From positions 98,458,001-98,522,000 of the forward strand of contig NC_086107.1 of NCBI RefSeq assembly GCF_963921235.1: a stretch of 64,000 nt of DNA, read 5' to 3'. Of this stretch, positions 37,101 through 60,463 are shown in pieces. Source of the stretch: Mobula hypostoma. Lineage: Eukaryota. The translations under genes and the position numbers were made by a program. Position 1 is the stretch's first letter, and each line of letters opens with the position of its first letter. The notes under the pieces were generated by a model that was not told where the DNA came from, did no database searches, and worked only from the letters and a program-made list of their open reading frames with translations.

Positions 37101-40100
37101 CCAGAACCTATGGGAAGCACAGAAGACCAGGAGCAGTATTGAGTCTGTGAAAATGAGCTCTGAAAGTGAAGCTGAAATCAGGACAATAACTGACAGAGAT
37201 AGGTGATCTCATAACAATTAGATCAGCTTGAACCTCGCAAATGACTGTACTGCTAGATCCATCTCTAACCACATCATTAAGTTCACCGATGACACAACAG
37301 TGGATGGCCTCATAAGCAACAATGGTGAGTCGACATCCAGAGAGGAGGTAGAACAACTTGTGGACTGATGCGAACACAACAACTTGAGTCTCAACATGGA
37401 CAAGACCAAACAGATCATTGTGGACCTCAGGAAGTTGCAGGCGAATCACTCCCTATCGCACATCAACTGCTCCTCTATGGAGAGAGCCAGGAACACCAAG
37501 TTTCTTGGCATGCTCATCACGGTTGATCTCACTTGGTCCTTCAACACCACCTCTTTAGTCAAGAAAGCACAGCAGCGCCTCCATTTCTTGAGGAGATTGA
37601 GGCAAACAAGGCTTCCTGCCTCCATTCTACCAGAGTACCATTGAGAATGTCCTGACCAGCTATGTCACCATCTGCTAATGAAATTGCAAGGCATCTGACT
37701 GCAAGGGCCTGAAACAGATTGTGACATCCCACTGACTGGGGTCTCTCTTCCCCACTCCACCTCACCCCACCCCAATATACCAGTGTTTGCAGAGCCCTCA
37801 GCATTGTCAAGGACCCCTTCCATCAGCCCCACAGTCTCTTCGATCCCCAACCATCTGGCAGAAGGTATCACAGTAGAAGAACAAGGACTACTACACTGGG
37901 TAACAGCGATTTTCCCCAGACTGTGAAACTTCTGAGCACCCTTCTAACACCTAGTATGCATTATTAATGGAAATGCCATTAGCATTATACTGTTGTATAT
38001 CTAACTTTGGCCACTTTATTAGGTACCTCCTGAGTGTGTGTACGTACGTATCTGCTGTTGTGGCCCATCTGCTTCCAGGGTCAATGTGCTATGTGTTCAG
38101 AGACGCTCTATTGCACACACTGTTGTAACGCGTGCTTATTTGAGTTATTATCACCTCCCTATCAACTTGAATCAGTCTGGCCACTCTCCTCTGACCTCTC
38201 TCATTATCAAGGTGTTTTCATCCACAGATCTGCCATGCTTTTTTTTGTTGTTCATACTATTCTTTAAACTCTAGAGACAGTTGAGCATAAAATATGCCAG
38301 GAGATCAGCTATTTGTGCAATACACAAACCATCTCATCTAGCACCAACAATCATTCCACAGTCAAAATCACTTAGATCACATTTCTTCCCCATTCTCTTG
38401 TTTGGTCTGAACAACTGAACCTCTTGACCATGTCTGCATGCTTTTTTTGCATTGAGTTGCTGCCACATGATTGGACGATTAGATATTTGCATTAACGAGC
38501 AGGTGCACAGGTGTACCTAATAAAGTGGCTACTGAGCGTATATGGTGCAGAAATGTTTACAATGCTGTGGAAGAGGGGCTTGTGATAGTAGAAAGTTAGC
38601 ATGGGCTGAATGGCTTCCTGCTGTGCTGTGACCGCTCTACAATTCTGTGATTCAATCCTCGTAGACTCTGAGCCATCGGTAAGCAGAGTGATTGTGAGAA
38701 ACTCCGGAATCAGCCACATCCCCCTTCAGAAAGAGGTGAGCCACGTGCATACGTTCCCACTACCAGCCCACCACACCACACCAGAAGCATTTTCATGTTC
38801 CTGTCCCAGCCAGACTGGAAGTGCAAAACTGAGAAGATGTTATGAACATCTGAACATCCAACATGCCATTCCTTCACCATTTACTTATCCTCTTACCACA
38901 TCCCAGAGTTTTTCAACCATCTACTCTTCCAACCTTCTGGTCTTCCAGTCCCACTCTTCATGCTCTCTTGCTATGACTCAAATCCAGCTCTCAATCCCAG
39001 TCTCCCATCGTCTCTCCATATCCCTCAAACCTACCATCTCACCAATCAAGCTTACCTACACATTTCCATTCCTCCCATAGATCTCAAACACACAACCCCA
39101 CTATTCACCATATCACTCAATGTCACCAGTCCACCTTCTCAGATCATTCCTTAAATCAAGCTAATCACCTGTCGCCTGATGAAGGGTCTCGGCCCAAGAC
39201 GTCGACTGTTTACTCTTTTCCATAGATGCTGCCCGGCCCGCTGACAGACTCCAGCATCTGTGTGTATTGCTTCAGATTTCCAGCATCTTCAGATTTTCTC
39301 GTGTCTCCGTCACCCTTCACCATGTTGCCCAAACCAACCCACCACAATAACTAATCTGTTAAATTCACCCCAACAATGAAACCTGCTAATCCTGCAGCTA
39401 AGGACATGCCTCGTTTATCTATCTACCTGCTCCCCAAATCGCTCAGTTCTGTATCCTGTCATTGTGTGAGTTAACCCTGAACAGTGACCATCAAAGCCCT
39501 CAGCCACACAAGTTCATCTCATTATATCTAGTAACACTACCAAACCAGCTACTAAATAACATTCCACCAAACCTAGCCCTTTATCTCTCAATTCTTTTCA
39601 TACCTTCAATCTGTTTTTCCATCTCTCCACAGTATCCTTTTATCATGATCTTTATCCTACTCCTTACCTATCCATCAGGCTAATCTCCCACCCATCCCTG
39701 CCTCACCATAGCTCTGACTTCTCCCTCTCCCAGTCCTCTCAATCTTCCCTCAACCCCCAAATATCTCCACTATCGGGTCTGGGGATTTTTCAATCCACGG
39801 GCTCTTTTAGGAGTCCAAGGACGAGTCAAAAACCCGTTGCTTTACGATTGTTTATTTGAAGTTTGAAACTAAAGGAAAGAACATAATGAAAAGACAAAGA
39901 CAAGACGATATTTGCAGTATCTGACATTTTCATACTGGGATAAAGCCACATTCCTGAGATAAGTGAAGAGCCAATGAGGAGAATGAAATATGATAAATCA
40001 TTATGAAACTAAAGGAAAGAACCTGATAAAAAGACAAAAACAAGATACTAAAACAAGAACAAAGACAAGATGGCAAATTTTGCAGAAACTGGTACTTTTA

Positions 40101-41794: not shown

Positions 41795-44700
41795 CGAGCA
41801 TCCTGATTGGTCTCTCTTCGTGCTAAGTAGACCTATCAGTTTTCTCTGTGGGCGGGCTTTACAGTCGACCTCAAATATAATGACAGAGTTGCTCGCTGCA
41901 CTGTTTGCAACAGTGACTTTTCTATTGCCCGTGGTGGGTTAAAATGTAAAAGACATGTTGAGGTGAGTTTAACAGGTGTCATTCGTTCATTAGCATAGCA
42001 AACGTTATTTAAACTAGCTGTCTAGCTGCTAAGGAGCTACTCTATTGATGTCCTATGTGATGACGCCAAACTCCCTGTAGACTTGCTTAAAGTTGTAATA
42101 GAATAAACATAATAATATATGTACATATTTTAATGTCACATTTTCTGCATATACCGAACTTGGTTTACAGATTAGACAAAATCACTAAACAAAGTATTAC
42201 ATACGCCCTTGGAGGTCGACGGGGTGGGGGGGGGATATGGGGTTGCGGGAGGCGGGGCTGCTACCTCCCTGAAATGAGTTTTTGTAGGGTGGGATGTCTG
42301 CATTTAAAGCATATTTGTGAGATCAGATAATCTCCTATTTAGCTAAGCTTAAGAAACAGACAGAAAATAGAGTTAGATAAGATTTCAAAACAAATTAAAG
42401 ACTTCGATAATATTTATGCAATCTCTCCTAACATTGATTTATTTAAACAAAGGGTTGAACTTCAATCACAATATAATTTACTATTAACTTATCCTATTGA
42501 AAGAAATTTGCTTAAATTGAAAAGTCAATTTTATGTGTTTGGAGATAAAAGCAATAAGCTATTATTATCCCAATTAAAGGCAGCTAGAGCTAAAAGACAA
42601 ATTTTAAAAATTCGTAAGGCAGACGGTAGTTTAGCTTGTAATTATGAAGACATTAATAAAATTTTTCAAGACTTTTACAGTGAACTTTATAAATCTCAGT
42701 TTCCAGCTGATCCTTCTAAAATGAATGCCTTTTTACAAAAGATTGATTTTCCTAGATCAACAAACTCTTGATACTCCTATTACTGAAAAAGAAATTCAGA
42801 AAGCTATTCTTCCAATGCAATCTGGTAAAGCTCCTGGATTGGATGGTTTTTCCATAGGATTTTATAAAAAATTTGAAAAATTGCTTTCTCCATGTATGTT
42901 AGAAACACTTAAAGATTTTTTTTTTGTTAGGAGAGTTACCTCCCACATTTTATGAAGCTTCTATTTCTTTAATTCTTAAGAAAGATAAAGACCCTACAGA
43001 TTGTGTTTCATATAGATCTATTTCATTATTAAATGTGGATGCTAAAATTCATTCAAAAATAATGGCTAATTGACTGGAGAATATTCTAGCTAAAATTATT
43101 TCTCAAGACCCAACAGGTTTTATAAAAGGCCGTTATTCCTTCCCTAATACTTGGAGACTGTTAAATGTTATATACTCATCCCTTTCTAAGACTCCCCAAT
43201 GTGTTGTTTGTCTTGATGCTGAAAAGGCGTTTGATAGAGTTGAATGGAAATACTTATTTAACGTTTTAGAGAAATTCAACTTTGGTACTAATTTTAATAA
43301 GTGGAATGATATATAAAAGCCCTGTTGCTACAGTTATTACTAATAATTGCAGATCTTCTTTTCGACTTTCGTGGGGTACGAGACAAAGATGTCCATTAAG
43401 TCCCCTGTTATTTAATTTGGTGTTGGAACCCTTGGCCATTGCACTTCGTGAAGCAAAAGATATCCGTGGAATTTTCATAAATGGGACTATTCATAAGATC
43501 TCCCTTTATGCTGATGATCTCTTAGTTTATGTTTCAAATCCTGAAGAATCCATTCCTAGTTTATTGAAATTATTAAATGAATTTGGAAAGTTTTCGGGAT
43601 ATAAACTAAACCTTTATAAAAGTGAATTATTTCCTCTAAATGATTCTGCTTCTATATATGATGACATTCCTTTTAAAGTTACGGACTCTTTTAAATATTT
43701 AGGTATTATCATCACTAAAAATTACAGAGACCTTTATAGAGCTAATTTGGTTCCTTTAGTGGATTTTATGAAGCAATTATTTTATAGATGGAATCCACTT
43801 ACACTTTCGTTAGCTGGCCGAATTCATGCAGTTAAAATGATGATTTTACCAAAAATTTTATATGTATTTCAAAATATTCCTATTTTTTAAACTAAGAAGT
43901 TTTTGATCAGGTTGATTCTATTATTTCACCTTTTGTTTGGTATAGTGAAAGACCAAGAAATGGAAAATATCATTTACAAAAATTAAAAAAGGATGGAGGT
44001 CTTGCTCTGCCTAATTTAAGAATGTATTATTGGGCTGTTAATATACGTTATGTATGTTCTTGGTTATATTGGACTGATAAAAATGAACGACCACCTTGGG
44101 TTGATTGGAATTGAAAGCTGTGAAACAATTTTACTTAACTTCGTTATTAGGAGCTTCTTTACCTGTACAACTGGCCAAAATTTCTAATCTAAATTTATAT
44201 CCTGATTAAGCAGTCATTATGAATTTGGTACCAGTTTCATAATTTTTTTAATCTCAAAAAATTTAACCTTCTTAATTTAATTTATCAAAATTATTTATTT
44301 AAACCTTCACCAAGTGATCCTACCTTTTTCTTTGGAGGAATAAAGGAGTCTCTTCCTTCATGGATCTGTTTCAAGAAGGCTGATTGATGTCCTTTGAGAA
44401 ATTAGTAACTAAATACTCTCTCTCGTACTCACATTTCTTGCAATATCTTCAGGTCAGATGTTTCTTACAAGAATATTTAAGTAATTTTCCATATATACAA
44501 GATTCTGACCTGTTAGACATTATTTTAAAAATGAATCCTTAAGTGAAGGTTTTATTGGGAAAATTTATAATTTACTATTACAACAGTACAATTATCCTTT
44601 ACTTAAGATTAAGCTAAATTGGGAAGAGAGCTTAACATGACCTTGATAACAGAGGATTGGTTGCGAATTTTGAAATTGGTTAACTCTTCTTCGATTTGTG

Positions 44701-47700
44701 CCAGTCACTCTTTAATTCAATTTAAAATTGTACATCGTTACTATTTGACAAAGGAGAGACTGTCTAAAATATTTCCTAATGTTGATAGTCAGTGTGATAG
44801 ATGTAAAACTGAGACAGCTACATTGACACATATGTTTTGGTTGTGTTCTGTATTGAAATAGTTTTGGAAACCTATTTTCTCTACAATTTCTAAAGCTTTA
44901 AAAACTAATTTACAACCTAGTAACTTGACAGTTTTGTTCAGTGTAATTCCTCAATATATTCATGGTATTTCTATATCACACCAACATGTAATTGCATTTG
45001 TTACATTATTGGCCAGAAGGGCTATTTTATTGAAATGGAAAGATGCCTCTGCTCCCACTTTGATACAATGGTTCTCTCAGGTGATGTTATGTCTTAGTTT
45101 GGAGAAAATCAGAAGTCGAATTTTTGATCCTCGATTTGATTTTGAGAAAAGGTGGGGTCATTTTGCCCGCAGTATCATTTGATCTGAGTTAATTAAGATG
45201 GTTCCCTCTGATTCTTGTTTAAATGGATTTGAGTTGGTGGATTGATGTTTTTCTTTTATGGAAGTTTGTATGGCGTATAGCTCCAGGGTTGTGCTCCCAA
45301 TGGGGTTTTTTTCTTTTTTTTTTGTTAATAGGGTTTTTTTTTTGTTTTAGTTAGTAGGGGTTCTTTTTTCCTTCTTTCTTTTTTTCAAAAAAATAGTTTT
45401 AACATTTTATTTTTTCTTATCATTATTGATATCTTGTTTAGCTTTGTTAATCAGTTATTTGATAATTTAATTTCTCATTGTACATATTGACATGTTGACA
45501 TGATTACTTTTATGTATTTTTGTTGGTCTTCAATAATAATTGATAAAAAAGATTTTAAAATGAAAATGAAAACTGCATGTTATATGTTAGTAAAACAACA
45601 ATTTTACTCTTGCTAAAAACTTACTAAAGGCATAAAAAACAGCCGATTCCAACACCACATAACATACTTTCTTACCGTTTCCCTCCATCCTATCTTCTCC
45701 CATCTGTGATACCATTTTTCGATCTTCCTATCATGTACCACAATCGTGCTTTTTCAGCTCATCCCTCAATTCTATTAGAGTCAAAGAGCCATACAGCACA
45801 AAAACAAGTTCTTCAGCCCACCATGACATGTTGAACACCAAGTACCAATCTGATCTAAATCCATTTGACAGCACTTGATCCGTAGCCGTCTCTGCCATGG
45901 CAAATCACGTACTCATCTTCTACTTCTTAGCTGTTGTGAGAATCTCTGCCTTCCACTACACATTAGGCATTCCGTTCCAGAATTCAGCTACCTGGGTGAA
46001 AAGATTGTTCTATGGATCCTGTCAAAACCTTTTACACCTCAGCTTAACCCCTGCCCTCTTGTTTCAGATAGCTCTGTTAAGGGGAAATCTATGTCGTTCA
46101 AGTTTGCGAACCTCTTTCGGTTCTTCTCTCTCCTTCTCTCCTTCTTTGCTCCAAGGAAAACAATCCAATCTCTCCTCATAACTAAACCCTCTATTCTATG
46201 AAACATCCCATGAACCTCCACTGTACCGTCTCCAGCATAATCCTATCCTTCCTCTCGTGTGGTGACCAGAATTGTGCACAGTACTCCATCTGTGGCCAAA
46301 ACAAAACTTTATAGAGTTATATGATGCCCTCCCTGCATTTGTATTCTGTGCTCTGGCTATTGAAGGCAAGTATCTCGTATGACTTATTCACCACCTTATC
46401 TACCTGCTTAGCCATCTTCAGGGATCCTTAGAATTGTACACTGAGGTCCCTCTGTTCCTCACTACTCTCTATAGACCGAACATTCATCCTGTATATTCTA
46501 TTCTGATTAACTCTCTCAAAGTGCACCACCTTGCACTTATCAGGATTAATTTCCATTCTCCACTTCTCAGCTCACCCCGCCAACTAATCAATATAATCTT
46601 GTAAATTATGACTAACAACGTCAACACCATTTTTGTATTGACTGTAAACTACCTCCTACATTCATATTCAAATTGCTCATATACATGACAAACCGTGGGG
46701 TTCCAGTAATGATCCATGTGGTACACCTCTTACCGCAGTCTTCCAATTGCCAAAGCAACTCTCTATCTCCACCTTCTGACTCCTGCTTTGAGTCCCATGT
46801 CCTCGAACCTTTGGATCAGTTACCTATGTTCGATCGTTCAAGTTAATACGAGAGAATGTACACAGTATGCAACCTGAAATTTTTATTCTTCACAGACATC
46901 CACGAAACAGAAAAAAACCCCAAAGAATGAATGATAGAAACATCAGAACCCAAAACCCACCCCGCTTCCAGCAGCAAAAGCATCAGCCTACGTGGGCCCG
47001 TACTGAGGTTCATGTAAACTACATCGATTCTGCTGCCCTCTTTGATACATGTAGTTATCTTTACAAAAAAATTCAATTCAAATCAATAATTTTTTTTAAT
47101 ATTTATCCAAATTCTCAAACTTTGGACTCTATCTACCAACTGCCAACACTTCATGGTGTCTGTAATCTTATCAATCCTACATTCTCATTCAACTCATCAA
47201 CTTTACAGCCTCCTCTCAAGTCATTTATGTGTACTGTTCCAGCGATGGGACCGGGAACACTGAATAAGCCAGAAAATGGGATTGAGAACATTGCCAGACC
47301 CATGGTGTTTTCTTCTCTTCTGTCCCTCAGCCTCCGGTAGCCAGACAAGGGCCAAACTTCGTTAGGAATTTATTCAATTTGTATGGCCTCAGTCCTCTCG
47401 TTCTGAACTTCCTTCAATGTCTGAATCTGGAACCAAGAGCTGGAGAAAACATCTTTGTGACAAGAACCGAGATCCAGCGTCTTCTGCCATATCCTTTTAC
47501 TGTTTTCTTTCCTCAACAATCGCGTTGGTACCTGATCATTTTGCTCTTACTCTGGCTGTGGTTGACGTGTGTAGCTGTGGCTTCCCTCCCCTGTGTTCTG
47601 AGACAGGCTCAGAGTCACCATGTGTAGATGAGATCAAGCCTTCACACAGCAGTCCATACACAGGGGAATCCAAGCTGTACATTGAGCTGAAAGGAGAGAA

Positions 47701-49857
47701 ACAAACTGGGTTCACTTCAATACATAATTCCAGAAGACGTAGGGAGAGCACTGTGAAGTGCTGCTGTAAGATTAATTCATCATAATATCCTGGCTTGGGG
47801 TACTTATCTATATATTTAGAAAGCAGCTCAAGTACTCTCTTTTGGATTAAATTGTGAAGTAGGATGGAATGAGCTATACTGTTGAGGACATACCATCAGG
47901 TATCCATCTCATTGAAACACAGAACAGTGGCACTGCTGCCTGATGGTGTCCTTTCCCAGAAAAGGCCGATTCCCTTACAATGAAGCGAAGAGGGGAGGAC
48001 CGCTGCCATGTCTGATGATGGTTGAGGGTGGTGGGTGTTCCCGCACTGCCTGTGCTGCTATCTTAACCACTGACGTGAATGTGCTCTGGCAACCTCTGGG
48101 GCTGTTGCTGAACAGGGTGGGTATTTGGGGTTCTACAATCCCAAGGTTTGCGCCAAGTGACACACACAAAATGCTGGAGGAACTCAGCAGGTCAGGCAGC
48201 ATCCATGGAAATGAACAAACAGACGGCAGTTCGGGCCGAGACTCTTCTTCAGGACTGGAAAGGAAAGGGGAAGGTGCCTGAATAAGAAGGTGGGAGGTGG
48301 GGAAGGAGGCTAGCTGGAAGGTGAGAGGTGAAGTCAGGTGGGTGGGAAAGGTCAAGGGCAGGAGAAGGAATATGATGGGGAAGAAAGCGGACAACAGGAG
48401 AAAGGGAAGGAGGAGGGGACCAGGGGTAGTAATAGTGTAATAGGCAAGTGAGAAAAAGGGAAAAGGGGAATAGAGGAGCGGGGGAGGATCTGTTCACCAG
48501 AAGCAGAAATCAATACTCATGCTACCATGTTGAAGGGTGCCCAGATGGAATACAAGGTGGTGCTCCTCCACCCTGAGGGTGGCCTCATCCTTTCTTACAT
48601 TGAGAGAGAGAGAGAGAGAACAACCCACACTGCCATTAATGCTCCATCCAGTCTTGAGTTTTTGACCATTGATAATGGGACTTATGATCATAAGCATGTA
48701 ACAAAGAGAAATCGCGCTTCGGACCTCACACACCAGAGCAGGCATCCAGTGAGACACTGGCAGGTCCTGTGCCTTTTCTTTGCTGTGTGATCCCCATTCC
48801 TTCAGCTTCCTTCAGTGCCCGCTGACCTGTCAGTCTCAGCCTAGGATACACTCAACAACTGTGACAATAGAAAATTATTTATTTAGAGATACAGTGCTGA
48901 AGGGGCCCTTTCATCCCAACGATCCATGCCATCCAGCAGCCCGTCTATTTAACCCAAGCCTAATCACGGGACAACTTACAATGACTAATTCACCTACTAA
49001 CTGGTACGTCTTTGGACTGTGGGGGGTGGGACTGGAGCACCCGGAGGAAACCCACATATCATGCAGAGAACAAACTCCTTACAGACGGCGTCGGAATTGA
49101 ACTCAAGAACGCCCCGAGCTGTAATCGCTTCACGCCAACCGCTATGTTGCTGTGGCGCCCCACCGTAATTCTTCTCATCTCAGTTCTCCTTGGCTGGCCC
49201 CTTAGTCAGAGACTATGTCCTTTGTTCTATATTCTCACTCTGAATAAATATTGTACTATCCTTTCATACCCTTGCAGAAGCTGATATATTTGGAGGTAAC
49301 TTCAGGCTAAAACCAATTTACCACCCCCCCCCCACCATCATCTGTTATTGAGCCCTGCTGTTGAGAGAGGATTTGTGCTAGAACAAGATGTACCCTCCAA
49401 TAACTGATATTACGACTTCTCCACATACTGTGCTGATAATAAATGTGGTTTGCCCATGAGCTGACCTCTTTTCTGGAGCTACTCTGATCAGTGACCCTAC
49501 ACAGTGTCTCTCTCCCTTCCACAATCCTTTTCCCATGGGCTGGTTTGAGCCACTCTTGACCTATTGACTTGACAATTGATTTTGAAATCCAGCCCATTAG
49601 GGACAGTAAAGAATCAGGCCATTTACTAAAAACAAGCTTATTATCTCTGCACTATTCTCCTGGCTGGAGAGACAGCCTTGCTATGTCAAGAATCAATCAT
49701 TTGAAATGTCATCCTCCCTGCTTTTTCTCTTAACGCTGGATTTACAGATGATGCTCCCACGTATCGTGATGCGATTGAAGCGGGATATCAGAACTTGCTG
49801 AAGCTGAAGGAGAAGAAGAAGAAACTGCTGCGGCAACACAGAAAGTTAGTGAAGTAA
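986..49857 (+). CDS. FAM227A: FAM227A-like gene (FWWh domain), 5'-partial, 10 coding exons: 986-1129, 5608-5706, 9517-9621, 17869-17998, 22082-22195, 28993-29096, 32423-32573, 38665-38735, 47331-47488, 49746-49844(/49857)
   Basis: The spliced translation is open, with intron phases 0,0,0,1,1,0,1,0,2. It contains DSFWWFFLH, LFDRISKNY, LSQAVYTSFCCSFPQSW, FNLYGLSPLV and PTYRDAI, which match my recollection of vertebrate FAM227A (AVYTSFCCCFPQSW type) rather than FAM227B. Confidence 0.88.
2935..3482 (+). mobile_element. Rex/Babar-type LINE 3' fragment
   Basis: PSIEHIY..CRRKAASIIRDPHH C-terminal motif; aataaa...tttgaa tail. Confidence 0.7.
3753..4574. mobile_element. Penelope-like element (PLE) composite: inverted pseudo-LTR (3753-~3935, -) plus sense GIY-YIG C-terminus, 3'UTR and pLTR (3936-4574, +)
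   Basis: ORF 3838-4137 ends LPVATHFNS...LEEQHLIFRLGSLQPDGMNIDF, nearly identical to the end of 40377-40841. Confidence 0.82.
4439..4474 (+). ncRNA. Minimal type I hammerhead ribozyme motif in PLE pseudo-LTR
   Basis: AGTC CTGATGA A GGGT-CTCG-GCCT GAAAC GTC GACT; complete core, stems I and II, palindromic ACGT in place of stem III. Confidence 0.78.
5608..5706 (+). CDS. FAM227A: FAM227A exon, TGYIADFQQMLSSPVVQDILLDSFWWFFLHEQK (99 nt, phase 0-0)
   Basis: Acceptor tgcag ends at 5607; donor AAG|gtgaga; carries the FWWh signature. Confidence 0.93.
5776..6275. mobile_element. Non-autonomous Tc1/mariner-like composite repeat; related copy at ~7843-8290, fragment at ~59740-59880
   Basis: Inverted cagtactgtgcaaaagtcttaggcac-type termini; shared internal sequence between copies. 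Confidence 0.5.
7162..7732. mobile_element. Non-autonomous Tc1-like DNA transposon (MITE)
   Basis: Terminal inverted repeats (TIRs) cagtggccactttattagg ... ctactaaaatggccactgagtg; same family at 30030-30594 and 38008-38538. Confidence 0.72.
8388..8795 (+). mobile_element. Short non-autonomous RTE-like retroposon
   Basis: Flanked by a ggccatc(a/g)ctctc direct repeat; (gtaa)n-like tail; RTE-like body. Confidence 0.55.
9517..9621 (+). CDS. FAM227A: FAM227A exon, THSSVQCRLFDRISKNYVQLIMEGWSWSFGDRFLQ (105 nt, phase 0-0)
   Basis: Acceptor cttattccctttcag; donor CAG|gttagt; LFDRI..Y motif. Confidence 0.92.
9891..10473 (-). mobile_element. CR1/HER1 LINE 3' end
   Basis: ORF 9981-10376 QRRFTRMLPGL...LGLFSLERRRMRGDLIEVYK; tatgttctat tail. 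Confidence 0.9.
10648..10953. repeat. Minisatellite, 56-bp unit, 5 full copies plus a partial sixth
   Basis: cacagtctgccaccatccatcctgctctctgaaacccactatcccaacccagagag starting at 10648, 10704, 10760, 10816, 10872, 10928. Confidence 0.95.
12585..13281 (+). mobile_element. Young CpG-rich non-autonomous retroposon with (ctaat)n tail, inserted in CR1
   Basis: Splits CR1 gatgacac|aagatt; starts ggggggagaagatggcggcg; ends aataaaa...ctaatctaatct. Confidence 0.65.
13495..13866 (-). mobile_element. RTE/BovB-related SINE inserted in CR1
   Basis: gaagaaggcaatg-caaaccacttctg...ttgccaagaac segment; (aatg)n tail; gatt(t)tggaa-like flanks. Confidence 0.6.
14675..14905 (-). mobile_element. tRNA-derived SINE with (ttc)n tail
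   Basis: 14-bp TSD agctctaccattga (14661-14674, 14906-14919); B-box gttcgaatcc on the minus strand. Confidence 0.75.
15000..16200 (-). mobile_element. Old CR1 RT fragment
   Basis: KSPGPDQ, PLFKK, SGVPQGLVLGPLL, FADDT motifs. Confidence 0.8.
17869..17998 (+). CDS. FAM227A: FAM227A exon, EFSSTLSQAVYTSFCCSFPQSW...YRWFG(G) (130 nt, phase 0-1)
   Basis: Acceptor tttcccccag; donor GAG|gtaaag; conserved AVYTSFCC.FPQSW. Confidence 0.93.
18505..19566 (+). mobile_element. Rex/Babar-type LINE, 5'-truncated and degenerate
   Basis: KFADNTSIVGQI, WCHNNNLSLNVSEMKELIIDFRR; KVASITRTSHHPGH; tttgaacttt tail. Confidence 0.85.
21560..21990 (-). mobile_element. Degenerate PLE GIY-YIG fragment
   Basis: AFHRDCTLCDSLVH...PGTYPCKWKKYNTC, homologous to the region around 40377-40841. 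Confidence 0.7.
22082..22195 (+). CDS. FAM227A: FAM227A exon, (G)IRPAPKIFKNWNCDALL...EQNKK(G) (114 nt, phase 1-1)
   Basis: Acceptor ttccttctttccag; donor AAG|gtaatt; G..P.P.....W motif; phase matches the previous exon. Confidence 0.87.
23515..23814 (-). mobile_element. tRNA-derived SINE inserted in a CR1 3' end
   Basis: 12-bp TSD agataggtacat (23503-23514, 23815-23826); A-box tggccaagtgg and B-box gttcaatcc; second copy at ~36210-36510 (+). Confidence 0.8.
24959..24996 (-). ncRNA. Minimal hammerhead ribozyme motif (minus strand)
   Basis: Reverse complement reads CAGTC CTGACGA AGGGTTCTGGCCT GAAAC GTT GACTG. Confidence 0.7.
25199..25236 (+). ncRNA. Minimal hammerhead ribozyme motif
   Basis: CAGTC CTGACGA A GGGT-TCCG-GCCC GAAAC GTT GACTG; 5-bp stem I; GUU cleavage triplet. 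Confidence 0.75.
28993..29096 (+). CDS. FAM227A: Probable FAM227A exon, (G)IKKFLFNLNQSSGPSPLTATSKSKRAASMSRSNK (104 nt, phase 1-0)
   Basis: Acceptor tctatttcgtag; strong donor AAG|gtgagt; phase bridges the flanking exons; non-repeat sequence. Confidence 0.72.
30030..30594. mobile_element. Tc1-like MITE inserted in CR1
   Basis: TIRs cactcagtggccactttatt ... aataaaatgaccattgagtg, followed by ta. Confidence 0.72.
32423..32573 (+). CDS. FAM227A: Probable FAM227A exon, PSTERKENTLSRLPPDSPSK...EEPARSP (151 nt, phase 0-1)
   Basis: Acceptor ttttctgctttcag; donor CTG|gtgaga; open, S/E/P-rich linker. Confidence 0.72.
32753..33191 (-). mobile_element. PLE 3' end/pLTR, inverted relative to the 3936-4574 and 40330-41293 copies
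   Basis: Near-identical reverse complement of ~4088-4530; hammerhead core mutated (GAAA to AAAA). Confidence 0.85.
33630..33832. mobile_element. Short fold-back PLE pLTR derivative
   Basis: Inverted arms acacacac..gctggaggaactc / gagttcctccagcattttgtgtgtgt; gaatttcctt direct repeat at 33618-33627 and 33837-33846. Confidence 0.72.
36210..36510 (+). mobile_element. tRNA-derived SINE (same family as 23515-23814)
   Basis: tggccaagtggttaagg head; body is the reverse complement of the 23.5-kb copy. Confidence 0.78.
37215..37950 (+). mobile_element. Rex/Babar-type LINE RT fragment
   Basis: IIKFTDDTTV, NNLSLNMDKTKQIIVDLRK, KKAQQRLHFLRRLR. Confidence 0.82.
38008..38538. mobile_element. Tc1-like MITE
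   Basis: tggccactttattaggtac ... gtacctaataaagtggctactgag. Confidence 0.7.
38665..38735 (+). CDS. FAM227A: Probable FAM227A exon, (D)SEPSVSRVIVRNSGISHIPLQKE (71 nt, phase 1-0)
   Basis: Acceptor aatcctcgtag; donor GAG|gtgagc; restores the phase 0 needed by the 47331 exon. Confidence 0.68.
40260..41293 (+). mobile_element. 5'-truncated Penelope-like retroelement: short inverted pLTR, GIY-YIG endonuclease domain (ORF 40377-40841), 3' pLTR
   Basis: CKQNKCYTC...VTYCVRCSRCGLLYIGETRHRLGDRFAEH (GIY-YIG with Zn-finger linker); direct repeat caagttaaaa at 40250-40259 and 41294-41303. Confidence 0.9.
41160..41195 (+). ncRNA. Minimal hammerhead ribozyme motif in PLE pLTR
   Basis: AGGC CTGACGA A GGGT-CTCG-GCCC GAAAC GTC GACT; core intact, one stem I mismatch. 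Confidence 0.68.
41305..45570 (+). mobile_element. 5'-truncated L1-clade LINE, ORF2 pseudogenised (APE endonuclease, RT, CCHC)
   Basis: YSFYSHVH..YSRTDY..SDHAPL; SGKAPGLDG; GTRQRCPLSPLLF; LYADD; CDRC..ATLTHMFWLC; T-rich 3'UTR with A-rich tail; many stops and frameshifts. Confidence 0.92.
41644..42300 (+). mobile_element. Non-autonomous hAT-like DNA transposon inserted in L1
   Basis: 13-bp perfect TIR cagacatcccacc; TSD cattta (41638-41643, 42301-42306); BED-finger-like remnant ARCTVCNSDFSIARGG; internal (GA)n. Confidence 0.8.
45780..46830 (-). mobile_element. Old CR1 3' fragment
   Basis: CR1 tail (catacagcac...cttcagccc) and degenerate RT C-terminus. Confidence 0.65.
47331..47488 (+). CDS. 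FAM227A: FAM227A exon, PPVARQGPNFVRNLFNLYGLSPLVLNFL...TRTEIQRLL(P) (158 nt, phase 0-2)
   Basis: Acceptor ttctcttctgtccctcag; FN.YG.SPL motif; ends at the U12 donor ATATCCTTT. Confidence 0.88.
48160..48598 (-). mobile_element. Degenerate PLE 3' fragment inside the U12 intron
   Basis: KDEATLRVEEHHLVFHLGTLQ on the minus strand, plus pLTR. Confidence 0.72.
48875..49165 (-). mobile_element. HE1/V-SINE-like element; related copies at ~53575-53820 and ~56880-57115
   Basis: ctggagcacccggaggaaacccac V-domain-like segment; CR1-like tail. Confidence 0.6.
49746..49844 (+). CDS. FAM227A: FAM227A exon, (P)DDAPTYRDAIEAGYQNLLKLKEKKKKLLRQHR(K); ends at donor AA|gttagt (49845) or reads on to TAA at 49855-49857
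   Basis: PTY.D.I motif followed by a coiled-coil-like segment; in frame only with the AC acceptor. Confidence 0.82.
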
Positions 49858-49934
49858 CACACTCACCCCAGGGGCTAATCCCAGGACAGCCTTGGCACTT
49901 CCAGCTATGCTTGTTGCTAACAGAGTAATTGTGA

Positions 49935-50440
49935 ACAGTTTCGGGCTCCTCGTCTAAGAAAAGATGTGCTGGCATCGGAGAGGGTTCAGAGGAGGTTCAC
50001 AAGGATGATTCTGGGCGATCGTAGGAGGAACATGTGATGGCTCTGGGCCTGCACTTGCTGGCATTTAGAATGATGGGGGAGATCTTATTGAAACCTTTTG
50101 AATGTTGAAAGGACCTAGACAGAGGAGATGTGGAAAGGATGTTTCCCATGGTGGGGGAGTCTAGGACAAGAGGGCACAGCCTCAGGATAGAGGGGTGTCC
50201 ATTTAAAACAGAGATGGAGAGAGATTTATTTAGCCAGGTGAGAGGGCGTAAGTTCAAAGGAGATGCAAGGGGCAGTTTTTTGTTTACACAGCGTGGTAGG
50301 TTCCTGGACTGTGCTGCCTGGTGTGGTGGCAGAGGCAGATGTAGTAGAGACTTTTAAGGGGTGTTTAGATAGGCAGATGAATGTGAGGGAAGCATATGGA
50401 CATTTCTAGGCAGAAAAGATTAGTTAGACAATTGATGACT
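49935..50440 (+). mobile_element. CR1 3' fragments
   Basis: ERVQRRFTRMI; ERMFPMVGESRTRGHSLRI. Confidence 0.78.
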
Positions 50441-50749
50441 GATTTAACCAGTGCACCGAGACCACTCTGAGAAATCACTAATCCCAGTTTGTTATTGGTC
50501 TCCCCCACATTCCTGTCAACTCTCGTGATTCCAGCACTCATGTACGCAACCAGGGCAATGTATAGCGGCTAACCCACTTGGGTTTGGGAGGAGAATGGGG
50601 CACCACCTGGTCACAAGGAAGACATGCAAACTCCACAAGGCATTGGAGGGCAAGACTGAATCTGGTTCACCGGAGATTTGAGGCAATAACTGATCCAACT
50701 AATTTTGAGACTGAGTCCTATGGGCAACAGCGAGCAGACTGAGTGTGAA

Positions 50750-51422
50750 ATTACTCCTCTCTTCCCTTTCCTCCCCCTGCAGCCCTTTACCTCTTCCACC
50801 TATCACCTCCCAGCTTCTTACTTACCCCCCTCCCCCACCCACACAATTTTCCCCTCACCCAGCCTTACCTATCAGAAAAAACGGGATCTCCCAGTGCACA
50901 TCCATCTTAATTCCACTTCCCGTTTCCATTCAACATGTCCATCCATGGCCTCCTCTACTGTCATGATGAGGCCACACTCAGGTTGGAGAAGCAACGCCTT
51001 ATATTCCTTCTGGGTAGCCTCCAACCTGATGGCATGAATATTGACTTCTCGAACATCCGGTAATGGCCCCACCCTCCTTCTCTATTTCCCATCCCCTTTC
51101 CCTCTTTCACCTATCTTACCCATCACCTCCCTCTGGTGCTCCTCCCTCTTTTTCTTTCCTCCATGGCCTTCAGTCCTCTCCTATTAGATTTCCTCCTTCT
51201 CCAGCCCTGTATCTCTCTCACCAATCAACTTCCCAGCTCTTTACTTCACCCCTCCCCTTCCAGGTTTCACCTGTCTCCTTGTGTTTCTTCCTCCCCTCCC
51301 CCCACCTTCTCACTCTGACTCCTCATCTTTTTTTCTCCCGTCCTGCCGAAGGGTCTTGGCCCGAAACGACAACTGTACTCTCTTCTATAGGTGCTACCTG
51401 GCCTGCTGAGTTCCTCCAGCAA

Positions 51423-51466
<44 letters not shown>

Positions 51467-51660
51467 CTATAACCTGCCAGCTTGCCCACCTTCCTTTCCC
51501 CTCCACCTTCTCATTCTGCCTTCTGCCACCATTTTTTCCAGTCCAATTGAAGTGTTTTGGCCCACCATGTGAACTGCTTATTTCCTTGCATCGATGGTGC
51601 CTGACTTGCTGAGTTCCTCCAGCGTGTGTTTGTTGCATCTGCAGAACCTCCTGTGTCTCT
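50750..51660 (+). mobile_element. PLE 3' fragments with tandem pLTR remnants and (GT)n at 51426-51462
   Basis: Degenerate GIY-YIG C-terminus; mutated hammerhead ctgccga...gaaacgac near 51340-51375. Confidence 0.72.
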
Positions 51661-52335
51661 GAGTGTGAACTGTGCAGCCACGTGGGGGATCTAATTTAAA
51701 GTGTTAAAGTGCCCATGTGATGTACTTCAAGCCGAGCAACGTGACAGAGAGTTCCACCTTCACAATTCTAATCTGAGAGATACAGAAGCAAACTTGAGAA
51801 AACGTACACAAATACTTGAAGGTCACTGAAAGTACAAAGTTTCGCGCATTCTGCTGGGTCTGGGCTGGAGCGTTGTCTCCGTTTCTGGATGCCACAAACT
51901 GGACATCCATTCGTGCAGGGAGAAGCGCACACCCGGATACGGGCCTGGGTGAGCAGAGTCATTTTGCTGGACAACACTCCAAGGAGGGGAGCACGGACAG
52001 GGCATTGCCCCTCGTGACCTGACACAGGAATCTCTTTTCATTATCGCAGTTGCATTTCACAACAAGCCCTGTGGTATCAAAGGCAGAATTCATTCCAGAA
52101 ATGGTTACAATCACGCTCCACTCCGGTTATAACTGTTTTCACAAACGGTGCTGCGCCCAACCATTCCTCAGCCCACGCTGACGATGGATGTCGAGGATGT
52201 GGAGTGGGTGGACAGAAGGAGATTCTCAATCACGGCCAGTGATGAGATATTGGTGGCACCAAAGTTCAAAGTACATTTATTATTGAAGTATGTATACATT
52301 ATACAACCTTGTGATTCATCTCCTTACAGGCAGCC

Positions 52336-52949
52336 TGTTGTGATGGAAATGAAACAGATTCTTTGGGTCTCAAAGGCAAGGATTCTGGACACACAGTTTT
52401 AACAATAAGGAGTTTATTTTTAAGGGGAGAAGAGCTTGGGGACAACACAAGCGGCTACGATATTCGCACAAATGTGCTTAGAATAGATGAGCATGGGAAA
52501 AGTCGGGTTGGCGGTACAGTACACGGAAAACGGTGTGGGGACAGAGTACAGGGACATATACAAGTAAGGGAAGAGTAACTACGATACCTGCCTCCCTTGA
52601 CTGTGGGCAGGCATGGCTCTCTGCTACAGGGACAACAATAAACGCTCCCAAAACCCTATTCAACGCACAACTCACTAACAGCAGGGTGGTCCCTCGGAGA
52701 CAGAAAAAAAGAGAGCGAGCCAAGCGCATGTAGCACCCTTTATAGGTCAGGGGGCTGGAGGGTCCAGCCCACGTGATTTACCGTGGGGCAAACGGCTTGG
52801 TGTTAGGTGGGTTAATTCAGTTAAGGTGGCCAATGGTTACGTGTGCATTGATTAGTTGGGAGGGGTGAAATGTTGACTGGGATGTAGTGTGCCTTCCAAC
52901 CAGGTAGAGGGCAGTGCTGAGCTATGACAGGCATGGCTCTCTGGATACA
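52336..52949 (-). mobile_element. Probable solo LTR inserted in a Rex-tailed repeat
   Basis: TG...CA termini; 5-bp TSD cagcc/cggcc; minus-strand TATAAA (~52745) and AATAAA (~52418). Confidence 0.55.
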
Positions 52950-54362
52950 CGGCCACAAAACAAAGAATCCAAATAGAACCTATTAAAAAGGAGGCCGTCA
53001 AACACCAAATGTGCAAAAAAAAAGTCGTGCAAACAATAAAAAGTAAGCAAATAACGTTAAGAACTAAATTTCACAGAAGTAAATTCACAACCATGAAGCC
53101 AGTTACAGCCGATCCAGGAGCCTGTTAGTTGCAGGCCACAGCCTCAGTTCAGAGCCAAAATGAGTAAACCTCGCCAAGCAGTGAGCTGAACTCCAACCCA
53201 TCCCTCTCCACCGGCCCCAAAACCATGACCTCTTCAATCTTGCCCTGCGCCTAAATCAGCCAAACCTCAGCTTGTTCCTCAATCTCACACACAGGCCCTG
53301 CCACTTCAATATGCTCTCGGGCCTGGGCCCTGCCGCCTGGATTCAGTCCATACCCGACCTTCCCAATACGGCCCGGTGCTTAAATCGGTCAGAAACCGGC
53401 TCGTTCCTCGCTCTCAGGCACGGGCCCCAGCACCTCGACTCTGATTCACAGAGCCTGGGTGGCTAAAGGGAGAAGCATCATGCAAGAGAGGTTGCAACAA
53501 GTAGGGCAAAAATGGTGTCACCCGAAGTAGTTTGGCCACCAAATCTAAAATCAGTAGCAATAAGTCAGGTGGGAAATTTATTTATTTATTGAGATACACT
53601 CAGAATAGACTCTTCCAATCCTTCAAGCTGCACTGCACAGCAACCCCTGATTTAATCCTAGCCTAATCACAGGACAATTTACAACGACCAATTAACCTAC
53701 CAACCAGCACGTCCTTCGACTGTGGGAGTAAACTGGAGCGCCCTGACGAAACCCACGCAGTGATGGGGAGATTCTTACAACAGCGTGAACTGAGCCCAGG
53801 TCGCTGGGACTAACGCCCCAGACTCAATAGATTAATTCACACAGATGCGTGGTCATGGTCGGGAAGCATGTGGGATATATTCCATAGGAGGTCTCAGAAA
53901 GCATTTGGACGTATTTGAACACTCAAATTTTCCAGGTGATAGGGGGAGAGCTGTGCAGAGGGACGATATTGATCTCTTTTTTTGGAGAGCTAGGATTGGC
54001 ATGGCTGGCCAAATGGCCTCAAAGTGATGTGAGCTGTGTTGTAACTCAGTTCCGGCCACAGAACCCCCACGTTGCTCATTCATTTTCAGTTGCTTTCTGA
54101 TCTCCTGTTGACTTTTCTCCTTTTTAAGGCTTTCCCCTGAATGGAGGAGTAGCAGTGTCTTCTGCCTGATGGGAGAAGGGAGAATATCTGGGGCGGGTGG
54201 GGGTGTACGATTATGCCAGCTGCATTACTGAGGCAGTGAAAAGTGTAGACAGAGTCCTTGAGTTCCATGATTACCGAGCTGTGTCTACAACTCTTGCAGT
54301 GTGTGTCCCCAATCCCGAAATGTCTCACCTCCCTTGAAAGTAATTTCTACTTTTTCTTCCAG

Positions 54363-54419
54363 GAAACAACATCTGGGACAGACAAAATAAACACCAGGGC
54401 AGGCTCCTGTTCCACCAGG
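54363..54419 (+). other. Candidate downstream exon (57 nt), frame uncertain
   Basis: Strong acceptor ctactttttcttccag and donor AGG|gtgagt in non-repeat sequence. If joined in phase 2 it gives KKQHLGQTK* (TAA 54388-54390). Confidence 0.4.
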
Positions 54420-56109
54420 GTGAGTAAGGCTTTGCTCTGGAATAACCAGCATTCTGGGAAAATGTTATGGACAGAGTGCAGGGCATTGGATAAGTATTAC
54501 AATGAGCATTGAGGACTGAAGGTAAATGTTATCCTAAAGGCCTCCTTGCCCACCCAGTGCTTGGGTTAAGGACTACTCAGAGCCAAAGAGGGCTTTGGGG
54601 TGGGGCTCAATGTAAATAGGACAAAGAGGGATGTTTTACTGAAGGAGTCCAAGTTTAAAAGAAAACCACAAAGATAATAGTCGTTAAACCAAGTAGTTTA
54701 GGGCTGGGATGGGGTTCAAGGTTTCTGGTGAGGGCTGAAGAAAAGGAAAAAGTGAGGTAGTAAAATGGTGTCAGGAAGGAACAGAGCATACAGACGTAAT
54801 AGTAAAACTACAGTGAGAAATAAAGTTCCATTATAACTTATCTGTGATTAACTTAAACAGATGATCTTAAATAAAAAAGCATATTTTGAACAAATGTGGC
54901 AGTGGATCAGAAGACTAGATGGAATTTTTAAAGAGCGAAGAACGGCTAAATGATTATTATGCAAGGAGAAATGAGGGTCTGAGAGAAATGCCTGAAAGTA
55001 TGAGTACATTTGGGAAACATTTCTATAAATATTTTTAAAAAGAGAAATTAACAGAGTGAGCCTTTAGAAAATGAGCCGAGGGAATTCATCATGGAAGACT
55101 AGGAGATAGCAGATGAATTCAAAGTATTTTGCACCAGGCTTCACTGCAGGGAATAGAAACTGCAGAGTTGTGAACACAGCACAGCAAATCACGGAAACCA
55201 GCCTCCCCTCCAGGGACCTCTCACTGCCTCAGTAAAGCAACCAGCATAAACATAGACCCCACCCATCCCGGACATTCTCCCTCCTCCTCCCTCCCATCAG
55301 GCAGAAGACACAAATCACATACTACTAGGCTCAAGGACAGCTTCTATTCCACTGTTTTAAGACCATTGAATGGTTCCATACTACGATAAGATTGACTATT
55401 GACATCACAGTCTACCTTGTTATGGCCTTACACCTTATGTCTGGTTCCACTGCACTTTCCTGGGAGTCCTGAGAATGAAAGGGTTAATGCTGGGGAGCAT
55501 TTGATGGCTCTGGGCCTGCTCTCACTGGAGTTTAGAGAAAATGGAGGAGGGGATCTCATTGAAACTACGAATATTGAAAGGCCTAGATAGAATGGATGTA
55601 GAGGGCATGTTTCCAACAGTGGGAGCATTTAGGACAAGAAGCAATAGCCTCAGAATAAGAGGATGTTCCTTTTACAGTGTTGGGGAGGAATTTCTGTAGC
55701 CAGAGGCTGGTGAATCTGTGGAAATTTTGCCACAGACAGCTGCTGAGGTCAACTCATTGTGCATATTTAAAGCAAAGCGTGATAGGTTCTTGATTAGGAA
55801 GGGCATAAAAGTTTATGGGGAGAAGGAGGAAAATGAAGATGAGAGGGAAAATAAATCATCCATGATCAAATGGCAGAGGGGATTCAATGGTCCGAATGGC
55901 CTAATTCTGCTCTTCTCTGAACCTGTAACACACTATTCTGCATTCTGCTATTGCTTTAACCCGGACCGCTTCAGTACAGTTGTAATGAAACGATCCATAT
56001 GAATGGCATGCAATAGAATGATTTTTTATTCTACCTCAGGACATGTGACAGTAATAAACCAACTTACCAACATCTCAGAAATGGCTGCAAATCTAAATTT
56101 GGGAGAGAG

Positions 56110-56575: not shown

Positions 56576-58453
56576 CAGGAACATTACAATCAATAGGACA
56601 AGTTCAGGCTGAAGTATCTCAGGGTCCTATTCAGCATCTTCTGAGGGTCTTAAAAGTAGCCAATGAGATGGTTGATGTGTTGGTTTTAATCCATTTCATT
56701 AGATTGGTTGCATCCTGACATTGGTTACACGTTTGTTCGGGTTATTAGAGTTCCTTGAAAAAGAAACGCGTTCTGTGGGTAAAAGGTTCATTGAATGAAG
56801 TTCATTGTGGAAAATGAAGTTCATGATGTGATGGAAGATTGTCTGGCTTTCTGGAAACAGTAGACAAAACAGATTTTTAAAATCTACCTAGAGATACAGT
56901 GCTGAGCAGACCGTTCCGAGTCACAGCACCCAGCAACCCCCGACAACCGTGATTCAACCCTAAACTAACCACAGGGCAGGTAACCCACCTGATTAATTGC
57001 ACCTGGAGAAGAGCCACGCATTCCGCAGGAAGGAAGTACAGATCCTTTAGAGAGGACACTAGGATTGACCTCCCGAATTCCGGCACCCCGAGCCAACCGC
57101 TACGCTACCGTGGCATCCTATTTTATTGCTTGGCAAAATGTAATGAGTGTTGTGTAATGGGATTAGTGCTTTAAATTTTATAACTAGATATGTAATTTAT
57201 TTATAATTCAATTATGGTCGCTAAATGTGTTCATGATGCAAAGATAGAGACATACAGCATGAAAACAGACCCTTCAGTCCAACTCGTCCATTCTGGCCAA
57301 GATGCCCACTTAAGCTAGTGGCATTTCCCCATATGCCTCTGAACCCTTCATATCCATTTACCTGTCCAAACATTTTTAAATACTGCTATTGTATCTGCCT
57401 CAACCACTTTCTCTGACAGCTTGTTGCATTTACGCACTCCCCTCTGAGTGAAGAAGTTGGACAGCAGGTCCTTTTTAAATCTTTCCTCTCTCACGCTAAA
57501 TTGATGTCAGAAAACAAGTTGTGAAGAGGACATGAGGTTACAGGGAGATATAGTTAAGTTAATACTTTATATTTTATTGTCGCCAAACAATTGATGTTAG
57601 AACATACAATCATCACAGCGATATTTGATTCTGCGCTTCGCGCTCCCAGGAGTACAAATCAATAGCAAATATTAAAAATTTAAATTATAAATCATAAATA
57701 GAAAATAGAAAAGGGAAAGTAAGGTAGTGCAAAAACCTTACTACCTCAGTACATGTGACAATAATAAACCAATTTACCAACATCTCAGAAACGGCTGAGG
57801 CAGGTCTGGCCCAGATCTGGGTCAGGATCCGTTCAGCAGTCTTATCACAGTTGGAAAGAAGCTGTTCCCAAATCTGGCCGTACGAGTCTTTAAGCTCCTG
57901 AGCCTTCTCCCGGAGGGAAGAGGGACGAAAAGTGTGTTGGCTGAGTGGGAGAGTGGTTAAGGAAGAGTAGGCAAAGATATAGCGAGAAGGCAAGTGTATG
58001 GGGTTGAGTGGGATCTGGGATCAGACTCGATGGGCTGAATGGCCTAATTCTGCTCCTATGTCTTATGGTCTTATATAGCAAATGGAGTATGGTATGGGCA
58101 GGGAACAAGGAAACATACTGTATTATCTAAACATTGAGAGGCTGCAGAGCTGTGAGTTACAGAGGTGTAAAAACTGTCAGAGGAAGTCAGCAGGTCAGAC
58201 ATTCTCTGCAGAGATACCAATCCCAACGCAGGGTTTTGATGTGAACCCGTGAAGGCTACCTCTACTCCTTTACAGTGCACTATCTATTTTGTAGTTTATA
58301 GCTTTTTTAGGTCTGTGCACTGTACTCCTGCTACAAGACAAGAAATTTCACTTCGTACACTATGTCAGTGATAATAAATTTGATTCTGATTTTGATTCTG
58401 GCCATCCTAGAGCCTCATGAATGTTTTAACTGTATTCCCCTCCTCTACTCTTC

Positions 58454-58970
58454 CTGCTGGTACATTCCAGTTACCCGTCACTCCCCCCTGCTGGCACATT
58501 CCAGGTACCTGTCACTCTCCCTGCTGGCACATTCCAGGTACCTGTCACTCTCCCTGCTGGCACATTCCAGGTACCTGTCACTCTCCCTGCTGGCACATTC
58601 CAGGTACCTGTCACTCCCCCCTGCTGGCACATTCCAGGTACCCACCACCCGCCTGCTGGCACATTCTGGGTACTCATCACTCCCCCTGCTGGCACATTCC
58701 AGTCACCCGTCACTCCCCTGCTGGCACATTCTGGGTACCCATCACTCCCCTGCTGGCACATTCCGGGTACCCATCACTCCCCCTGCTGGCACATTCTGGG
58801 TACCCATCACTCCCCTGCTGGCACATTCCGGGTACCCATCACTCCCCTGCTGGCACATTCTGGGTACCCATCACTCCCCTGCTGGCACATTCCAGGTACC
58901 CATCACTCCCCTGCTGGCACATTCTGGGTACCCATCACTCCCCTGCTGGCACATTCTGGGTACCCATCAC
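58454..58970. repeat. Minisatellite, 32-34-bp unit, about 16 copies, expanded from within a minus-strand CR1
   Basis: ctgctggcacattc(c/t)(a/g)ggtacc(tg/ca)tcactc(t/c)cc; runs directly into CR1 sequence at ~58970-59290. Confidence 0.92.
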
Positions 58971-60463
58971 TTTCTGGGTGAAAAAAAACTTGTCTCTTAC
59001 ATCTCCTTTAAATTTATCCCCTCTCACCTTAAATGCATACCCTCTGGTATTGAACATTTCGACCCTGGGGAAAGATTCTGACTGTCTATCTATTCCTCTC
59101 ATAATCTTATAAACCTCATCAGATCTCCCTTCAGACTCTGCCACTCCAGAGAAAACAACCCAATTTTGTCCAACCTCTCCTTGTAGCACAAGCACCGTAT
59201 TCCTGGGTAGATCTCTTCTGCACTCTCTCTAAAGACTGCACATCTTTCCTGTAATGGTGGCTATCAGAATTAAATGCGACAAGATGTGGCCTTACTAAAC
59301 TCTTACTGAGGCAACATTTTTGTACTGAGGATCATGAGTCTTTGGAACTCTCTACCTCACAAGACGGCGGAAAGAGTCTTTGAGTATTTTTATGGCAGAA
59401 GTAGATAAGTTCCTGATGAATGAAGGAGAGAGAATTACCGCAGTAAAACTGGAATGCAGATGCTACCACCCATGACCTTATTAAATGTCAGACCAGGCCT
59501 GAGGTGCCAAACCCTGCTCATAATTCATATGTTTGAATGTTTGTACTTCTTAAAAGGGAGGCTGGGCGACAGGGCAAGTAATTACTGGTTGCCTCACCAC
59601 TGCTAATGAGAAAATTGTTGGAAAAATATAGACTGGAGTTACAAATCAACATTGAGAAAGGCACGCGTCTATCAAGGTCACACAGCCTGCACTGGATTAC
59701 AGAAAGTTACGCCTGATGAAATGAAGCAGAGAGCGGGTTTGTCAACCTGCCAGTAGCAAAGGATGTTGGGACTGCCGAGGGAGGAGCGTCCTGGGAGGGG
59801 TGTGGGACAGGTGGCAGAGAAGGTGTGCTGGGATGGGGTGGTGGGGGATTGGGTTGGTGCGGGTGCAGACACACCCAGCCCTGTCCCACATGCAGACTCA
59901 TCTGTAAGGTTAATAACCAAGGTTAACGTAAGGGAAAATGGTAAGGCAGGTCCACAGCTGTTTTAATGGAAAGAAGCATAAGATAATTGTCAAACAGTGT
60001 CAGTCATTGAATGGCTGATGTACAGGGTTTCCCAGGGCTTGGATAACAGATGGAAGAATTATGGCTGGGTTGAGAAATGGCTTTACTACACAAATTCTGG
60101 TGACATTGAACACACTGTCTGAAAGGATGGCATTATGGCCTTCAACACATTTCAAATTCACAGAGAAATAACTGAAGTGCAGGAACTTACAAGTCTGCAG
60201 GCCAAATGGGATTAGTCCAGGTTGTTGTTCTGAGGCCTGCGTAGATGCAGAAGCAGCTAATGGTGTCTATAGATGCATTCTTCCAAATCTCTGCTCTCGT
60301 TCTCGCTCCCCATGGAGCCTGTGTTTGTCTGCCGTCCCCAGAATCACCCATGGCAGTTCAGCTGATTCTCAGCTGAAACCATCGGGAGAAGGACCAGCAT
60401 TCAAATTATCACGGGTTATCAGCCGAAACCCTGGCAGCACAAGCTCACCACGATGGCCTGAGA

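Follow-up and report, generated by a model that had tools for sequence, protein, structure and literature searches.

The intron at positions 47489-49745 (+ strand, 2257 nt) of the analysed stretch of Mobula hypostoma DNA, 64,000 nucleotides long and referred to below as the window, is assigned with high confidence to the U12-type AT-AC class, as the penultimate intron of a FAM227A orthologue. Its limits were established from the sequence, from contigs found in all of four public runs, and from an analysis of the cuts compatible with the joined product. The presence of an AT-AC intron in FAM227A is already known, the gene being catalogued for its minor introns in both human and mouse.

To judge from its sequence, the gene is the orthologue of FAM227A, which encodes an FWWh-domain protein. 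A search of the species' own 3.48-Gb assembly for the FWWh family (PF14922) located three exons within the window, at 5605-5700, 9511-9627 and 17857-18003, and a second set on another contig, C52. PF14922 was present in 46 of the 47 profile-search matches, most of them bearing the FAM227A name. The peptide encoded by the exon at 47331-47488 was compared with the NCBI proteins labelled "FAM227A-like" and found matches in rays and sharks, the closest being the "FAM227A-like" protein of Mobula birostris, with 100% identity across 98% of the exon; it is on this match, together with the FWWh exons, that the gene name given in the original prediction stands. Few residue differences separate the window from the M. 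birostris protein, such as L for P just before the junction, and the NCBI model of that species already contains the 47488/49746 junction. Protein P0003, aligned exon by exon with TBLASTN, showed identities between 71 and 100% with the exons of the window. The two short exon peptides flanking the AT-AC intron matched none of the Pfam families.

By combining TBLASTN alignments with the reading of splice sites, eleven coding exons were placed on the + strand, from 986 to 54390. Eight of them, for which the FWWh matches were also used, lie upstream of the exon that precedes the AT-AC intron, at 986-1129, 5608-5706, 9517-9621, 17869-17998, 22082-22195, 28993-29096, 32423-32573 and 38665-38735. They are followed by the two exons flanking the AT-AC intron, at 47331-47488 and 49746-49844, by an ordinary GT-AG intron of 4518 nt (+ strand, 49845-54362, from the reading of its splice sites) and by the last coding exon, which extends from 54363 to the TAA stop ending at 54390. 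Nine of the ten window introns of FAM227A are of the GT-AG type, with ordinary donors; only 47489-49745 is AT-AC.

Repeated sequences are found within and near the gene. In intron 8, the stretch 42343-45182 contains long open frames, one of them at 43270-43890 (206 aa), whose text resembles reverse transcriptase; they suggest a LINE-type retroelement. In introns 9 and 10, four stretches (47956-48219, 50068-50331, 50860-51123 and 53500-53763) reach a contig word depth, summed over four runs, of up to about 96,000, and are covered by many short contigs with 95-99% identity, indicating that these introns hold fragments of high-copy repeats transcribed somewhere in the genome. Downstream of FAM227A, at 58311-59112, all three + frames stay open for about 700-770 nt and encode repeating peptides (AGTFQVP..., LLAHSRY..., CWHIPGT...), which indicates a probable tandem repeat.

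The sequence around the two ends of the AT-AC intron was read directly. The upstream coding exon (47331-47488, + strand, 158 nt) starts in phase 0 and ends after the second base of a proline codon, its last letters being ...CTGCC, that is ...CTTCTGCC, at 47488. The sequence ATATCCTTTT, at 47489-47498, directly abuts the exon end, and its first nine letters, ATATCCTTT (47489-47497, + strand), constitute the 5' splice site, identified from the sequence and from the duplex energies described below. The U12-type consensus at this position is [A/G]TATCCTT at the exon end, and the ray site agrees with it. U12-type branch sites are of the TCCTTAAC type, and some 10-15 nt separate them from the 3' splice site. 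Here, a branch-point motif, TTCTCTTAAC, is found at 49725-49734 (+ strand), as the sole exact copy within the window; the CTCTTAAC contained in it fits the branch consensus at 6 of 8 positions, and its presumed branch adenosine, at 49733, would lie 12 nt from the intron end at 49745. The 11 nt between the motif and the intron end, GCTGGATTTAC, are not rich in pyrimidines, and no polypyrimidine tract precedes the 3' splice site, as is typical of U12-type introns. The intron terminates in AC at 49744-49745, as read in the sequence and supported by the contigs and by the cut analysis. The downstream coding exon (49746-49844, + strand, 99 nt), defined by translation, TBLASTN and contigs, begins with AGATGAT and encodes DDAPTY.... 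The letters and positions that had been proposed for the 5' site, the branch motif and the AC end were all found as described, and the proposed assignment to the U12-type AT-AC class is upheld by the ATATCCTTT site, the CTTAAC-type branch motif 12 nt from the AC end and the lack of a pyrimidine tract.

By themselves, the splice motifs are no rarer than chance. RTATCCTTT occurs twice in the window, counting both strands, against 1.47 occurrences expected, and the branch motif, allowing for at most one mismatch, occurs 6 times, once exactly, against 5.84 expected. What carries the case, therefore, is position together with the RNA evidence: a conserved coding exon ends precisely where the 5' motif begins, and the branch adenosine lies 12 nt from the start of an in-frame exon. 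A further sequence of this kind, GTATCCTTT at 39632-39640 (+ strand), was discarded as a splice site, as it lies within intron 8, away from any exon boundary, and belongs to a motif found at chance level. An Rfam scan of the region 47000-50200 found no hosted RNA.

The possible products were translated, and the alternatives were joined by a script. Upstream of the intron the frame reads ...TRTEIQRLL followed by the incomplete codon CC, and downstream of it DDAPTYRDAIEAGY.... The AT-AC join produces ...RLLP/DDAPTY..., where the slash marks the junction, within one open frame that runs up to the TAA at 54388-54390. Use of the AG at 49746-49747 as acceptor would give CCA TGA, an immediate stop, and retention of the intron would add 46 unrelated residues before a stop at 47628. 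Both the in-frame join at AC and the stop reached through the AG two bases further on had been predicted, and translation and scripted joining agree on them. Within about 60 nt of the AT-AC sites (47430-47560 and 49690-49800) there are also 7 GT/GC-AG combinations that keep the frame, such as the GT at 47479 or that at 47524 paired with the AG at 49746-49747.

Transcript evidence was obtained from public runs found by means of the exon 47331-47488. The search returned 11 rows, none recorded as RNA, their kind being guessed or unknown. Four runs (X1 to X4), corresponding to four samples of one study and containing all of the sampled words, were aligned to 46900-54800; they consist of assembled contigs, recorded as "RNA? 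(a guess)", and are silent on levels, retention and rare isoforms, so that stretches of the intron lacking contig cover speak neither for nor against its removal. In each of the four, one contig joins 47488 to 49746: the pieces 47329-47487 and 49745-49844 are adjacent, with no letters between them and no differences, and the exon 47331-47488 is likewise matched without differences by the contigs of all four runs. None of the four uses a GT-AG alternative, so that the linking transcripts called for in the original prediction are found, and found on the AT-AC sites. Record 8 of X2 goes on into 54363-54514, also skipping the GT-AG intron that follows and running past the stop as 3' UTR up to 54514; the X2 contig has, in addition, 116 further letters upstream. 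The aligner places the cut one base to the left of the proposed junction because a C stands on both sides of it. A script established that only CA..TA, AT..AC or TA..CA cuts yield the mRNA of the contigs, and among these AT..AC is the sole known splice class. Both DNA and protein searches found the exon 47331-47488 in a single copy in the 3.48-Gb assembly; the intron-less form is thus not a retrocopy in this assembly.

The genome contains genes for the minor-spliceosome RNAs, with scores above the Rfam cut-off: U12 (147 bits) at 98951136-98951286 of C45, the contig to which the window belongs; U11 (123 bits) at C36:151692208-151692340; and U6atac (136 bits) at C50:6417780-6417906. Duplex energies were computed with the 5' parts of these U11, U12 and U6atac genes. 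The AT-AC donor gave -8.2 kcal/mol with U11 and -8.1 kcal/mol with U6atac, the best values among the 10 donors, while the nine other FAM227A donors reached at best -5.6 (U11) and -3.5 (U6atac) kcal/mol; among 5000 random 12-mers taken from the window, 1.4% gave a U11 energy equally low. When U12 was paired with the final 40 nt of the intron, the plain duplexfold energy proved non-discriminating, with 14% of random 40-mers equally low; this measure is uninformative because U2-type introns, through their pyrimidine tracts, also pair with the purine-rich segment of U12. The best U12 gene lies about 429 kb past the window end. RNU12 and FAM227A are both on human chromosome 22q13, and the linkage between the U12 gene and FAM227A may be an old synteny.

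According to established knowledge of U12-type splicing, removal of the intron 47489-49745 would depend on the minor spliceosome and proceed as follows. The U11 snRNP would recognise the ATATCCTTT 5' site, and the U11/U12 di-snRNP would engage the 5' and branch sites together. Pairing of the U12 snRNA with the CTTAAC branch motif would leave the branch adenosine bulged, 12 nt short of the 3' end, and U6atac would take over from U11 at the 5' site. The adenosine at 49733 would then attack 47489, and cleavage after the AC would join 47488 to 49746, preserving the frame.

Since the class of an intron is not fixed by its terminal dinucleotides alone, and the plain U12 duplex score does not discriminate, it may be asked whether this AT-AC intron is instead removed by the major (U2-type) spliceosome, as a member of a very rare class for which the minor spliceosome would not be needed. 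We consider this very improbable: the ATATCCTTT 5' site differs from the U1-like form that U2-type AT-AC introns have, the CTTAAC branch motif lies 12 nt from an end devoid of a pyrimidine tract, the AT-AC donor shows the best pairing with both U11 and U6atac among the 10 donors, and in human and mouse FAM227A has been placed among the minor-intron genes by PWM.

Two further explanations concern the joined product itself, and the U12-type AT-AC reading is preferred to both. That the contigs owe their form to a processed retrocopy, to DNA contamination or to assembly error, rather than to splicing at the locus, is hardly credible. The RNA nature of the runs is a guess, and they are made of contigs and come from a single study; against this, DNA and protein searches find the exon once in the assembly, the same junction recurs with no differences in four separately assembled runs, one contig covers three exons across two introns, and the gene models of 7 elasmobranch species have the same junction. 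A main mRNA produced through a nearby in-frame cryptic GT-AG pair, with the AT-AC form as a minor isoform, would be compatible with the 7 in-frame GT/GC-AG combinations found within about 60 nt, and some public models of other species (P0018, P0012) resemble such products. It is nevertheless extremely unlikely, as none of the four contigs uses a cryptic GT-AG pair and the alternatives remove or replace conserved residues; moreover, contigs drop rare variants, so that the assembled AT-AC form is the commoner one.

At the junction, 28 public FAM227A models were compared. Seventeen have the correct junction. Seven, from six species, read into the intron as P-Y-P..., Y-P being what (A)TATCC(T) encodes; they belong to Rhinoraja (2 isoforms), Leucoraja, Heterodontus, Acipenser, Amia and Talpa. 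One more, from Pristis, dodges the intron via a spurious exon, and three (P0015, P0027 and P0048) have no clear reading at the junction. The suspicion that automated models may err here was thus justified for 8 of the 28, while the model of the nearest species is correct. The cryptic GT/GC-AG pairs look like the source of the distorted models in other species.

Minor introns of FAM227A had been recorded earlier, in the supplementary tables published by Olthof et al. in 2019 (BMC Genomics, PMC6717393), of which S1 and S2 underlie the MIDB list. Table S2 reports Fam227a/FAM227A as a minor-intron gene in mouse and human, with the AT-type 5' site CCC/ATATCCTTG in mouse and the 5' site CCT/GTATCCTTC in human, and FAM227B as "HumanOnly", with one minor intron and the 5' site ACC/ATATCCTTT (PMC6717393). 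Table S1, described in the paper as listing all minor introns, has two for FAM227A in each species: a 5'-proximal one of 4381 nt and a 3'-proximal one of 2407 nt in human, and of 805 and 2599 nt, respectively, in mouse (PMC6717393). The pairing of each 5' site in these tables with one of the two introns is our own inference. No main text was found to link FAM227A with minor introns, the FAM227A listing being seen in supplements alone. The text supplements of Moyer et al. (2020) have no FAM227 entry; those of PMC11347168 and PMC12956336 may list the intron. The sole text match for "FAM227" together with "U12" was an unrelated paper, and was set aside.

The ray AT-AC intron is probably the counterpart of the catalogued mammalian 3' minor intron. 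The grounds for orthology are protein alignment, codon context and similar length, rather than genome alignment. At 2257 nt, the ray intron is 3'-proximal, as are the listed human (2407 nt) and mouse (2599 nt) introns of similar size, and the CCC exon end listed for mouse splits a proline codon after its second base, as in the ray (PMC6717393). When 19 vertebrate FAM227A proteins are aligned, the junction proves to be conserved from sharks to mammals as P/[DE]xxPTYxD.I; the murid proteins read ...VIP/DSAMTY, which fits a mouse exon ending in ...ATC CC. In the comparison with other vertebrates proposed at the outset, the P/[DE]xxPTY motif is thus seen to be kept across this range, and FAM227A is present in the minor-intron list (PMC6717393, supplementary tables).

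A second, very probable minor intron is found just upstream of the window. Directly after the first FAM227A coding exon, whose last base is C45:98440014, comes GTATCCTTC, a 9-mer identical to the 5' site listed for human FAM227A in Table S2 (PMC6717393). The intron, at C45:98440015-98445025 (5011 nt), ends in AG, being of the GT-AG subtype, and contains a branch-like TTCTTTGAC whose A and the AG are 14 nt apart. On these sequence features it corresponds to the 5'-proximal of the two minor introns catalogued in human and mouse FAM227A, and the ray FAM227A very probably carries both minor introns.

The paralogue was analysed through the second set of FWWh exons. The search with the C52 FWWh exon led to proteins of Chiloscyllium and Lepisosteus that their sources name FAM227B, and these contain ...RTEIxxLPP/xxPTYQ.... 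By using a FAM227B protein, a FAM227B-like exon was located on the minus strand at C52:74153669-74153829; it is homologous to the FAM227A exon 47331-47488 (BLASTP E value 9e-7, 14 of 31 residues identical), starts in phase 0, measures 161 nt against 158 nt, and likewise breaks off two bases into a codon. It is directly followed by ATATCCTTTT (C52:74153668 downwards, minus strand), a site comparable to the ACC/ATATCCTTT listed in Table S2 for the minor intron of human FAM227B (PMC6717393). The FAM227A exon peptide alone, used as query, found nothing on C52, and the 3' end of the FAM227B intron had no match on the same contig. Downstream of the FAM227B FWWh exons, a scan of 200 kb revealed 11 U12-like sites, none at a FAM227-like exon; the FAM227B-like exon is placed just beyond the scanned 200 kb. 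Since the homologous FAM227B exon ends at ATATCCTTTT, the AT-type U12 site would predate the split between FAM227A and FAM227B. Both FAM227A minor introns are likely to date back to the jawed-vertebrate ancestor, the AT-AC intron pre-dating the A/B duplication. It may be speculated that the double dependence serves as a conserved post-transcriptional gate, in which retention of a minor intron brings about a premature stop and expression is thereby adjusted in testis or in ciliated tissue. The joint proposal, of two U12-type introns kept since the jawed-vertebrate ancestor, of an AT-AC intron older than the A/B duplication and of a conserved expression gate, is regarded as unlikely.

The value of these results lies chiefly in annotation quality, as the AT-AC intron makes gene finders biased towards GT-AG truncate or distort FAM227A, and genome projects should permit AT-AC junctions at this site. 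They also provide a cartilaginous-fish data point, consistent with an ancient origin of both FAM227A minor introns and of the AT-type site shared with FAM227B. FAM227A being already a listed minor-intron gene, no new question is opened; the additions consist of the probable U12-type GT-AG intron upstream, the FAM227B ATATCCTTTT site and the 8 affected models out of 28.

As regards known systems, the ray intron has its terminal dinucleotides in common with U2-type AT-AC introns. The latter are without the U12-type 5' and branch consensus; the ray intron, in contrast, has both. Its counterparts are the textbook AT-AC U12-type introns, such as that of SMYD2 tabulated by Moyer et al. (2020, PMC7367187), with which it shares a 5' site of the ATATCCTTT type, a TCCTTRAC-like branch site near the AC end and the lack of a pyrimidine tract. 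The ray branch motif, CTCTTAAC, departs from the consensus at two positions; otherwise, the intron is of the same kind as that of SMYD2.
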